29,683 bases of DNA from contig JAIBDK010000001.1 in the NCBI GenBank assembly GCA_024679435.1, positions 1 to 29,683 of the forward strand, in the 5' to 3' direction. The notes under the pieces were generated by a model that was not told where the DNA came from, searched no databases, and saw only the letters and a program-made list of their open reading frames with translations. Positions 16,617 through 19,374 of the stretch are shown here, one piece after another. Within the stretch, counting starts at the first letter, position 1. Each line of letters begins with the position of its first letter. The position numbers and the translations under genes were made by a program. Source of the stretch: Gammaproteobacteria bacterium. Its GTDB lineage: Bacteria; Pseudomonadota; Gammaproteobacteria; Arenicellales; Poriferihabitantaceae.

Positions 16617-17414
16617 TTAAGGTGCGGGCAAGCTATTACCGGTTGCCTGTTCAGCAGAGATGTTATTGTGTATATGGATATCACGTTGGGGGAACGGTAT
16701 TTTAATGCCGAGATCGGAAAACTTCAGATAGACTGCTTTATACAAGTCGCTCAGTACTACTAATCGATCCCGCACATTCCTTACGAAACATCGCAGTTCG
16801 AACTGAATACAACTGTCAGCGAAGCCTATAAACAATACAATTGGTTGAGGTTCCGATCCATCGGATATAATTCTTTCATCTTTTGTCGCAATTTCGAGAA
16901 GGGTGAGCTCTATTAATTTAATATCTGACCCATAGGCGACACCAACATTCAACGTTATGCGCCCAGTTGACTTTGACAATGTCCAATTGGTCACCGGAGT
17001 TTTAACCAAGTCTGAGTTAGGCACAATGACCTCCGTCCTATCCCAGGTTTGAATTACTGTTGACCGTATGTTGATTTGTTTAATAAATCCCGTTGAGGAT
17101 TCTGTGGAGATCCAGTCTCCAATACGCAGACTGCGTTCAGTTAAGATAACGATTCCCGCCATTATATTTCGAACCGAGTCCTGCAGACCGAAGCCGATTC
17201 CAACGGAAAGAGCGCTGGCGATTAGGGTTAAGTTGGTGAAATCTATACCAAGATATTCGAAGGCGACGGCAATGCCGATTAGTATAATGAATACTTTTGA
17301 GACTCGGCTGATAACGTAAAGATGGGAGTGATTGAAGTTATCATGTGCTCGCTCCACCCGAACCCAAAAAATTTTTGAAAGCTGAACCGCCACCCAGGTG
17401 ATAAAAAGAATCAA
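16617..17414 (-). CDS. Small-conductance mechanosensitive channel (MscS family); N-terminus probably extends upstream
   Basis: SALSVGIGFGLQD.V.N..AG..IL.ER..RIGDWI, I.IRST.I.TWD…IVPNS, VGVAYGSD, IPFPQRDIH. Confidence 0.9.
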   Translation of the reverse strand: MILFITWVAVQLSKIFWVRVERAHDNFNHSHLYVISRVSKVFIILIGIAVAFEYLGIDFTNLTLIASALSVGIGFGLQDSVRNIMAGIVILTERSLRIGDWISTESSTGFIKQINIRSTVIQTWDRTEVIVPNSDLVKTPVTNWTLSKSTGRITLNVGVAYGSDIKLIELTLLEIATKDERIISDGSEPQPIVLFIGFADSCIQFELRCFVRNVRDRLVVLSDLYKAVYLKFSDLGIKIPFPQRDIHIHNNISAEQATGNSLPAP

Positions 17415-17715
17415 TATTGTTCGGATAACCGTTAGATGCGTGATGGTAATACTTTCATACTGAAAGATGATGCTGTTTTACCCAGTTATCCATTATTCGT
17501 AGTACTCATTGACGGTGCTAAATCTTAAGATAGCAAATTGTAGGCGAATATTTCTCAATAGTTCAATTTTAAGGCTATATTGCCGATGTTGCCAAATTCA
17601 AGTGATCTATCGCTATTTGGCAGGCAGGAGAATATTATTGCTCAACTTTTGAGCCGAAATTGCTATGTTTGTTTATGCGTTTTTACATATAACCCGCGCG
17701 GTCTCACCCCCCCCC

Positions 17716-17768
17716 AAAAAAAAGCGCCCGCAGCTCAGCTGGATAGAGTGCCTGGCTTTTGCGGGCGC
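17716..17768 (-). terminator. Candidate intrinsic terminator formed by the antisense of the tRNA relic
   Basis: Minus strand reads GCGCCCGCA…TGCGGGCGC (9-bp GC-rich stem, with extra AGC/GCT and CAG/CTG pairs possible inside) directly followed by T8; lies downstream of the minus-strand metY unit. Confidence 0.5.
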
Positions 17769-17800
17769 GGTGGTAAGCAGTTCGACACCTACCTGAGCAG
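17724..17800 (+). pseudogene. tRNA pseudogene with a tRNA-Arg(ACG)-like 5' half
   Basis: GCGCCCG-CA-GCTC-AGCTGGATA-GAGT-G-CCTGG-CT matches acceptor 5' strand, D-arm and anticodon 5' strand of proteobacterial tRNA-Arg. Variable-loop-like CGGTG and T-loop GTTCGAC follow, but anticodon and acceptor stems cannot pair and there is no CCA. Confidence 0.72.
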
Positions 17801-18087
17801 ATTTTGGCATCTCCCCACTTTGGCGTAATATGTGTTGTCGCAATGGGCGCAAGACAGATCGGGCCTTTCCTGTTCCTTTTCGGTGCGAACCCTCAAAATA
17901 TGATTTTGTTTCGGCGTTAATTCGCGACATTCCCGCAAACAATATTTCACTCCCACTCTTGGGTGGTTCAAACATTTGATTACACGCTTCGCAAGAAATG
18001 AAAGTGTCACGAAGGGATGATCTCCGAGACCTGCAGTCCAAGCAGAAATTATGTGCGCCGTGTTATTTTCAGCTTAAATGAATCAGG

Positions 18088-19374
18088 TCATTTTCTGGAT
18101 TTCTCCAACGCCTGATCAATATCCCAGATAATGTCGTTTATCGATTCGATGCCTACCGAAATTCGAATCATGTCGGGGCTAATGCCTGCTGCAATTTGTT
18201 CTTGCTCGTTTAACTGACGGTGGGTTGTGGATCCCGGATGTATCACCAGTGTTTTTGCGTCACCAATATTGGCGAGGTGACTGAGAAACTGAACGCTTTC
18301 TATAAACTTCGCACCGGCGGACTGGCCGCCTTTGATGCCAAAGGTGAAAACCGAACCGCCACCTTTGGGCATGTATTTTTTGCCTAGATCATAATATTTA
18401 TTGTCAGGATCTCCGGCGTACTTTACCCACGAAACTGAAGCATGATTCTTGAGGTGTTCGACCAGCTTTTCAGTATTGGAGACGTGACGTTCCATTCTGA
18501 CTGGCAAGGTCTCGAGTCCTTGGAGCATCATGAATGAGTTGAACGGGCTGATTGCCGGCCCCAGTGTTCGCATGGTCTCGCAGCGGGCTTTCATGGTAAA
18601 GGCGAAATCGCCAAAAGTTTCCCAGAATTTGACGCCGTGATAACCCTCGGAAGGATTGATCATATCTGGAAAGTTTCCATTACCCCAGTCAAACTTGCCA
18701 GACTCCACCACGATTCCACCCATGGATGTGCCGTGTCCGCAGATGAATTTAGTTGCAGAATGCACCACAAGATCTGCGCCGTGCCTGATTGGCTGGCACA
18801 AAAATGGTGACGCAATGGTGTTGTCAATTACCAGGGGAATGCCGTGTTCATGGGCAATTTTTCCGATTGATTCAATATCTAATACGTTGTTGTTGGGATT
18901 GCCGACGGTTTCACCGTACAGTGCGCGAGTTTTGGTGGTTATTGCTCTTCGATAGTTCTCAGGATCGTCCGGATCAACAAAAATTGTCTTGATCCCCATC
19001 CGTTTAAAACTCATCGCAAACTGGGTTACCGTGCCGCCGTATAGTGTGCTTGCAGAGACCAGTTCGTCGCCTTCCTGAAGGATGGTTAACAATGCTGTCA
19101 TCTGTGCAGCCATCCCTGTACTGGCTGCTACCGCGGCCCGACCGCCTTCCAGCGCAGCCATCCGTTCCTCGAACATGGCCGTTGTGGGATTCATTAGTCG
19201 GGTATAAACATTACCGAATGTTTGCAGATTGAACAAACTCGCTGCGTGATCGGTATCATCGAAAACATAGGATGCCGTCTGGTAAATCGGTGTGGCCCTG
19301 GCGCCGGTTGCCGGATCAGGCTGGGTACCTGCGTGCAAACACAGGGTTTCAAAATCAAATTCGTGATCACTCAT
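18088..19374 (-). CDS. metY: O-acetylhomoserine aminocarboxypropyltransferase (OAH sulfhydrylase), PLP-dependent
   Basis: FETLCLHAG..PDPATGARATPIYQTASY, YTRLMNPT, VHSATKFICGHG (PLP Lys), HLANIGDAKTLVIHP.STTHRQL. Confidence 0.92.
   Translation of the reverse strand: MSDHEFDFETLCLHAGTQPDPATGARATPIYQTASYVFDDTDHAASLFNLQTFGNVYTRLMNPTTAMFEERMAALEGGRAAVAASTGMAAQMTALLTILQEGDELVSASTLYGGTVTQFAMSFKRMGIKTIFVDPDDPENYRRAITTKTRALYGETVGNPNNNVLDIESIGKIAHEHGIPLVIDNTIASPFLCQPIRHGADLVVHSATKFICGHGTSMGGIVVESGKFDWGNGNFPDMINPSEGYHGVKFWETFGDFAFTMKARCETMRTLGPAISPFNSFMMLQGLETLPVRMERHVSNTEKLVEHLKNHASVSWVKYAGDPDNKYYDLGKKYMPKGGGSVFTFGIKGGQSAGAKFIESVQFLSHLANIGDAKTLVIHPGSTTHRQLNEQEQIAAGISPDMIRISVGIESINDIIWDIDQALEKSRK

Follow-up and report, generated by a model that had tools for sequence, protein, structure and literature searches.

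Bacterial tRNA pseudogenes and relics arise from gene turnover, when the function passes to a duplicate or relocated copy and the original gene decays. Partial tRNA sequences are also found as fragments at the attL and attR borders of integrative elements. Template switching provides a third point of comparison; it can create a perfect stem in a single event, and was described by Monttinen and Loytynoja (2022) for functional rRNA and RNA genes in which the stems are retained (PMC8794818). The element described here, which lies between a metY-type gene and an MscS-family gene in a marine MAG, has features in common with each of these, and with Rho-independent terminators. We conclude that it is probably a dead remnant of the lineage's tRNA-Arg(ACG) gene, and that the hairpin it now forms is incidental.

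The element and its intact counterpart

The window, by which we mean the whole stretch of DNA that was analysed, is the entire contig C148 (29.7 kb) of a MAG that comprises 491 contigs and is 73% complete. Its minus strand carries a metY-type O-acetylhomoserine sulfhydrylase gene (18088–19374; TIGR01326 640.6 bits against a cutoff of 495.1, with Pfam Cys_Met_Meta_PP) and an MscS-family channel gene (16617–17414; Pfam MS_channel domains), the latter divergent from the old tRNA gene. In the spacer between them a C9 tract (17707–17715, +) and an A8 tract (17716–17723, +), both read from the sequence, make up the old tRNA leader (17707–17723), which in the minus-strand reading gives U8 and G9 past a hairpin. 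Directly after A8 comes a tRNA-like stretch of 77 nt (17724–17800); this layout, first proposed in a sequence-only reading of the DNA, matches the sequence. Upstream of the tracts, 17660–17706 (+) corresponds to the former promoter and the start of the leader, with a −10-like hexamer, TATAAC, at 17688–17693 (+) and a GC-rich discriminator, CCGCGCGG, directly after it at 17694–17701 (+).

Three parts can be distinguished from 17724 onwards. The first (17724–17757, +) is a preserved tRNA-Arg(ACG) 5′ half, comprising the acceptor 5′ strand, the D arm, the 5′ strand of the anticodon stem and positions 32–33, with a T8>C change at 17731. The second is a patch, TTTGCGGGCGC (17758–17768, +), which takes the place of the anticodon and the 3′ stem strand of the anticodon arm; its bases 17760–17768 are the reverse complement of 17724–17732. 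The third (17769–17803, +) is a diverged remainder, equivalent to the variable loop, T arm, 3′ acceptor strand and discriminator, in which TTCGA is kept, the T arm has three extra bases and CCA is missing. GGTGGT and TTCGA stand at tRNA spacing in this part, offset by 3 nt.

A repeat search finds the inverted-repeat arms, 17724–17732 and 17760–17768, to be 9 nt long, 27 nt apart and 100% complementary, so that the perfect complement claimed earlier, including the C at position 8, is indeed there. A generic 9-bp inverted repeat is seen in 14% of dinucleotide shuffles of the 673-nt spacer; what is not random in this one is its exact complementarity to tRNA positions 1–9.

Comparison with a relative indicates what the element once was. 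The ENA contig L030 encodes an MscS protein 87% identical to that of the window, and ARAGORN recognizes an intact tRNA-Arg(ACG) there, in the equivalent position and divergent from MscS. Homology detected by blastn (78.7%) runs from 17757 leftward into MscS and ends in the anticodon loop. Past the tRNA 5′ end, on the MscS strand, the L030 flank reads TTT, G6 and then TGAGACCGCGCGG, and the window has T8, G9 and the same 13-mer. Identity to L030 is 43/47 in the upstream block (17660–17706), 32/34 in the 5′ half (17724–17757) and 3/8 in the patch (17758–17768), against 66% for ordinary, neutral spacer. The correspondence is one of positional orthology with common flanks, and takes in the L030 tRNA-Arg(ACG), its leader, the upstream block and the divergent MscS gene. 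Since the homology stops in the anticodon loop at 17757, these alignments strongly support the view that the element is a broken orthologue of tRNA-Arg(ACG), and the origin from a tRNA-Arg gene put forward in the sequence-only reading is upheld. The relic carries further damage. In the corresponding position of L030 and of the same-genus genome G001 the −10 and discriminator read TATAAT and then CCGCGC; in the window the −10 ends in C instead of T, and the invariant U8 is also mutated, both changes being expected once the gene had stopped working.

The 5′ half remains very close to tRNA-Arg. Its 34 nt (17724–17757) match the tRNA-Arg(ACG) of relatives at 32–33 of 34 positions, and one or two mismatches separate it from their tRNA-Arg(ACG) and (TCG) genes. 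The comparison with the genome's own intact tRNA-Arg, suggested earlier as a check, gives 94% over 31 bases to the tRNA-Arg(TCG) of the MAG. Position 8 (17731) is C in the element and T in the tRNA-Arg of every relative compared. The claim that the whole stretch stays in tRNA register is borne out for the 3′ part as well, although weakly: against the 3′ half of the L030 tRNA-Arg(ACG), 17769–17803 gives 19/35 identities in an ungapped comparison at one collinear offset with a 3-nt shift, and at least 19/35 is reached by 72 of 20000 shuffles and 36 of 20000 genomic 35-mers (p ∼0.002–0.004). In a MAFFT alignment the figure is 23/35.

The element nevertheless fails as a tRNA on every canonical criterion examined, namely recognition by a tRNA finder or covariance model, acceptor stem, CCA, anticodon arm and U8. 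ARAGORN finds no tRNA genes in the whole window, and the Rfam tRNA model (RF00005) has no hit at the gathering threshold, and none at E ≤ 10 on 501 nt or on 101 nt. In the acceptor stem, read from the sequence, positions 1–7 can pair with the in-register 3′ strand at 2/7, and CCA is absent, in agreement with the decayed acceptor strand noted earlier; the tRNAs called by ARAGORN in the MAG end in CCA, save for one dubious tRNA-Ala call. The anticodon arm has its 3′ stem strand supplanted by the patch. A DNA search of 40 relatives gave matches solely to true tRNA-Arg genes, and the spacer itself is not conserved. A tRNA split by a group I intron, with its 3′ exon further on, was considered and rejected; Rfam gives no intron family match, and the window contains no 3′ half.

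Other assemblies contain the same structure. Logan contigs of four runs from four studies were aligned on 17300–18200. One of 1222 nt (X1) covers 17300–18200 with the same junction, and one of 251 nt (X5) covers 17519–17777, through the patch; on a 3562-nt ENA contig the order is likewise metY, spacer (669 nt), MscS, patatin. No joints are seen among the run contigs aligned to 17300–18200, and their dangling end sequences are absent from the MAG. An exact search with a 23-mer across the junction (two R positions) found no match in genome or metagenome contig collections, from which records of this genome may be missing, and exact look-ups of the patatin protein and of a 73-aa ORF from the spacer yielded no further contigs. 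Depth on 17724–17758 is hundreds-fold over the flanks, as a result of the tRNA-Arg genes of other organisms in the samples.

These contigs define several haplotypes. Over 901 nt X1 differs from the window by three substitutions, at 17695, 17697 and 17761, all of which fall in the old promoter or the stem, a placement that looks like relaxed constraint. X1 has five bases fewer at 17716, leaving C9A3, and X5 eight bases fewer at 17713, leaving about C6A3; the leader beside the intact gene of L030 is C6A3 (T3 G6 on the other strand). Since T3 is found in X1, in X5 and beside the intact gene of L030, it is the older state, and the other carriers of the broken gene lack the U-run. Of the C9A8 tract, singled out for inspection in the sequence-only reading, the A8 is not stable, and it is seen in the window contig only. 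The jump from A3 to A8 in 17707–17723 is unusual for slippage, and run lengths differ between same-species assemblies.

The locus is a synteny break. The MscS–patatin pair is conserved in relatives (61–87% identity) with varying upstream neighbours, and the CoA-binding and AMP-binding genes that precede metY are found again in G002 and G005; synteny downstream of metY is absent in G001, G002 and G005. A search for related loci with the MscS protein found none in metagenome contigs and one unrelated alphaproteobacterial locus in genome contigs. A second arrangement, known from metagenomes, is seen in the JGI contig L027, which encodes an identical metY protein; it is identical to the window from metY to 17814 and shows no relation to it beyond that point, placing an allele boundary at 17813/17814 (no strand). 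The 73-aa open frame lies between metY and the relic (17792–18010, −), with its stop codon inside the relic. In a search of 5.8 billion proteins its sole homologue is the 78-aa version from the other allele, it has no Pfam or NCBIfam match, and it is probably not a gene. The 78-aa variant of the L027 allele is also encoded by an ENA contig; both contigs end ∼30–90 nt from the allele boundary, and a contig on the MscS side, from this same sample, begins ∼269 nt upstream of MscS and does not quite reach the relic.

The divergent tail of this alternative metY-downstream allele is an 85-nt motif (L027:2823–2907) starting TGTATTAGATGCAAACC, which recurs with 76% identity at C59:3075–3159 (L028), 39 nt upstream of a class I/II aminotransferase gene. 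It has no Rfam match, no copy in the MAG beyond C59 and none in 40 relatives. Matches of its 17-mers in viral contigs proved to be chance, inside a phage gene. The tail was also considered as a reverse-complemented tRNA, for which a MAFFT alignment was suggestive, yet not above the ∼49% baseline of unrelated sequences.

Origin of the patch and the unequal halves

The patch (11–12 bases) stands where L030 has nine, those of the anticodon and the 3′ strand of the anticodon stem. Its 9-base block is the exact reverse complement of tRNA bases 1–9, in their present or ancestral form, and the copy extends no further on either side. We infer that a template-switch event, which the sequence-only reading had named as an example, is the most likely source: it is a reasonable mechanism for a 9-base reverse-complement patch, although a copy of the tRNA's own 3′ acceptor strand could supply 7/9 of the bases. 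The two extra bases argue for the reverse-complement copy, which they would favour by ∼16 to 1.

The order of events around the switch can be read in two ways. X1 has A at 17761, which makes its arm the exact complement of the ancestral 5′ end (T8); the arm of the window complements the present 5′ end (C8) just as exactly. The switch may have occurred on the T8 background, followed by T8>C and then by a compensating A>G in the window lineage, or T8>C may have come first, followed by the switch and then by G>A in X1. Neither history is the more parsimonious.

When a tRNA loses constraint it does so over its whole length, yet divergence from L030 is unequal, with the 5′ half 94% conserved and the 3′ part ∼55–65%. 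The difference is beyond simple decay after one inactivating event, and either a further event or a 3′ part of outside origin has to be assumed. There are three possible explanations: the 3′ part may have come from elsewhere by recombination in the anticodon loop, it may have been scrambled in the same event, or the 5′ half may have been refreshed by gene conversion.

The element could alternatively be a recombination scar, in which site-specific or illegitimate recombination broke the gene within its anticodon loop and joined a foreign or paralogous tRNA-like 3′ half to it; in a variant of this idea it is the attL-like junction of an integrative element, most of which was later lost. Such an origin, which we consider unlikely, would agree with the sharp boundary of L030 homology at U33/anticodon and with a 3′ part that is in tRNA register yet far more diverged than the 5′ half. 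The T stem would pair at 4/5 positions; in one pair both bases differ from L030 (T-A for G·T), which could hint at descent from another functional tRNA. The synteny break, at which the metY adjacency is unique to the species and the second allele diverges at 17813, also fits, as do two orphan tRNA 3′ halves in the MAG that start at the anticodon loop. However, the 29.7-kb contig has no integrase, transposase or phage gene, the window contains no displaced tRNA-Arg 3′ half or other second tRNA-Arg fragment, and the 3′ part is absent from the viral contigs searched and from the rest of the MAG. The exact complementarity of the patch to bases 1–9 would, moreover, be left unexplained.

The two orphan pieces, on C447 (∼2340–2395, −; L035) and C462 (∼780–835, +; L036), are ∼50 nt long and read as a CAT-anticodon tRNA that lacks its 5′ half, running from the anticodon loop CTCATAA through CCA. 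They look like orphan tRNA 3′ fragments. ARAGORN does not call them, their match in Rfam is just a weak one to the tmRNA 3′ end (E = 0.059), and no integrase is found in the scanned ORFs that neighbour them.

The minus-strand hairpin

On the minus strand the two arms form a terminator-like hairpin (17716–17768, −) with a 9-bp GC-rich stem and a 27-nt loop; the stem is followed in the window sequence by T8 and then G9, just as the sequence-only reading described. Hairpin and U-run together have a predicted energy of −24.5 kcal/mol (z = −3.4). They lie 320 nt past the metY stop and ∼130 nt ahead of the best MscS promoter-like site (17595–17566, −; TTGGCA, 18-nt spacer, TAAAAT, 10/12 matches). 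An 8-bp perfect inverted repeat, TGCCAAAT / ATTTGGCA (17590–17597 / 17615–17622), lies over the −35 of this promoter-like site; its core, ATTTGGCAACATC, is conserved in L030 and it may be an operator. A look for RNA runs containing the stretch found none listed.

The sequence-only reading offered exaptation as an intrinsic terminator as one possibility. In a fuller form of this idea, the new stem and the expanded U-run would have been selected as a Rho-independent terminator that shields the MscS promoter from metY read-through. We find this doubtful. In addition to the GC-rich stem, the U8 that directly follows it and the predicted stability, the idea draws on position, since the hairpin stands just where a terminator could serve a purpose, between metY and the best promoter-like site for MscS, and no other terminator-like site is called in the metY–MscS spacer. 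It draws also on the X1 substitution at 17761, which is wobble-compatible on the minus strand only: in the minus-strand RNA a G·U pair is kept (−23.3 kcal/mol in X1 compared with −24.7), whereas on the plus strand a C·A mismatch results (−19.8 compared with −26.5). The G·U pair would fit a minus-strand structure under selection, as a single hint from one site, and a path from T-A through C·A to C-G at 17731/17761 would amount to a compensatory change. The other order of the two point changes, however, is equally parsimonious and needs no selection.

The hairpin departs from a selected terminator in further respects. A U-run of at least five after the stem, kept among carriers, would be expected; U8 is private to one assembly, and X1 and X5, which carry the broken gene too, have U3, as does L030. 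With 27 nt, the loop is far beyond the range of about 3–8 nt typical of terminators, which is also the range that the terminator scan accepts, and because of this loop the element is not called in the consensus scan. Consensus terminators in the window number 23, against 19.7 ± 5.0 expected, and so show no enrichment, and the small ORF that would end 20 nt before the stem is without homologues. These comparisons do not support the proposed exaptation. The predicted hairpin may terminate some transcription in the window strain, but the hairpin and U8 are better regarded as an incidental, strain-specific by-product than as a conserved, selected terminator.

A terminator caught at birth would be a different matter, and is a rather improbable one. 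The template switch would have made the hairpin, the stem would have been repaired at 17731/17761 along the path T-A to C·A to C-G, with G·U as the intermediate on the minus-strand RNA, and expansion of A3 to A8 in one strain would have completed a working Rho-independent terminator between metY and MscS. If this were true, the population would hold the U3 (pre-terminator) and U8 (terminator) stages side by side.

We think it very unlikely that the element acts on the plus strand as a tRNA-derived small RNA or tRNA mimic, with a conserved promoter driving a functional hairpin RNA in which an acceptor-like stem closes the D arm. The identities to L030 in the upstream block (43/47) and the 5′ half (32/34) are far above the 66% of neutral spacer and the predicted plus-strand hairpin is stable (−26.5 kcal/mol), but recent inactivation explains the high similarity equally well. 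The −10 lacks its critical last T, the within-species changes cluster in the discriminator and the stem, and the X1 change weakens the plus-strand stem by ∼7 kcal/mol. The scan places no terminator downstream on the plus strand, and no tRNA model or other Rfam family scores the element; the mimic suggested earlier is unsupported.

That the hairpin junction is an assembly artefact, a fold-back or chimeric join made from metagenome reads, is hardly credible, for although the MAG is fragmented, tRNA 5′ halves are common to many metagenome organisms (whence the depth on 17724–17758) and homopolymer lengths vary between assemblies, the independent X1 and X5 contigs from different studies cross the junction with the same patch, the ENA contig agrees in gene order and in the length of the spacer, and the aligned run contigs show no joints, which disposes of the chimeric join that the sequence-only reading had named as its own refutation.

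The working tRNA-Arg(ACG) and known systems

By established decoding rules CGT and CGC need an ACG (inosine) tRNA, and these two codons make up 36% of the Arg codons in long ORFs. The tRNA-Arg(ACG) anticodon-arm pattern is present in exactly one copy in each of 15/15 family relatives searched (G001–G015), and there is none in the MAG (73% complete), where 24 tRNAs are called and the Arg species are tRNA-Arg(TCG) and (CCT) only. The broken allele is present in several independent samples. Because the gene is single-copy in 15/15 relatives, and because codon usage leads one to expect a working copy, we infer that this copy is probably in the unassembled 27% of the MAG. Single-copy status in the relatives and the lack of an intact copy in the MAG nevertheless count against the dead-remnant reading, which assumes a second copy. 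That the strains have really lost the one tRNA-Arg(ACG) of the family, and decode CGU and CGC in another way, is less likely even than the terminator caught at birth. At the site syntenic with the tRNA-Arg of G001, a P-II-like gene on MAG contig C426, no tRNA is found within 510 nt upstream. The tRNA-Arg(ACG) gene seems to move often in the family; its neighbours are a P-II-like gene in G001, MipA and MscS in L030, and tRNA-Ser in G002, G005 and G011.

If the element is a dead remnant, its history could be as follows. The ancestral tRNA-Arg(ACG) would have been divergent from MscS, as it still is in intact form in L030, and the copy in the window's species is kept up to U33 only. A short template switch during replication would have put a reverse-complement copy of bases 1–9 from the anticodon onward. 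The remaining 3′ half would then have diverged heavily, gaining three T-arm bases and losing acceptor pairing and CCA, and the −10 box and U8 are mutated as well, as expected after the gene stopped working. Pairing of the patch with the old acceptor strand gives the 9-bp hairpin, and with growth of the A3 leader run to A8 in one strain the minus strand reads as stem and U8 between metY and the MscS promoter. The working tRNA-Arg(ACG) would lie elsewhere, in the unassembled part of the genome.

Read in this way, the locus would be a clean, dated example of bacterial tRNA gene death, in which the intact orthologue, the common upstream block and several within-species haplotypes are all available. 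It would also illustrate, with a concrete example from bacteria, how a short reverse-complement patch can give a perfect stem in one step, and so provide raw material for terminators or small RNAs. For annotation, it is a warning that half-tRNA matches at MAG synteny breaks can be real pseudogenes and are not necessarily assembly errors. It raises the question of where the species keeps its working tRNA-Arg(ACG), of which each family relative searched has a single copy.

The element shares with Rho-independent terminators a GC-rich stem with an immediate U-run, downstream of a same-strand gene and ahead of the next promoter. It differs in its loop, which is partly structured and has 27 nt in place of 3–8 nt, and in having U8 in one haplotype and U3 in the others. 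With attL and attR tRNA fragments it has in common a break in the anticodon loop, a synteny boundary and alternative arrangements at the strain level. In contrast to those borders, the conserved part is the 5′ half of the host gene, the gene is not regenerated, and there is no integrase, direct repeat of the 3′ part or element.

The likeness to tRNA relics is closer. The element is the positional orthologue of a relative's intact gene and keeps part of that gene, while the cloverleaf, anticodon arm, acceptor pairing and CCA are gone and the promoter is decaying. It is unusual among such relics in that its halves are very unequally diverged, its replacement copy is unseen, and a reverse-complement patch at the break makes a new hairpin. 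Unlike the template-switch cases described previously (PMC8794818), the putative event here destroys a tRNA; like template-switch hairpin mutations, it has a short stretch swapped en bloc for a nearby reverse complement, and the new stem is perfect.
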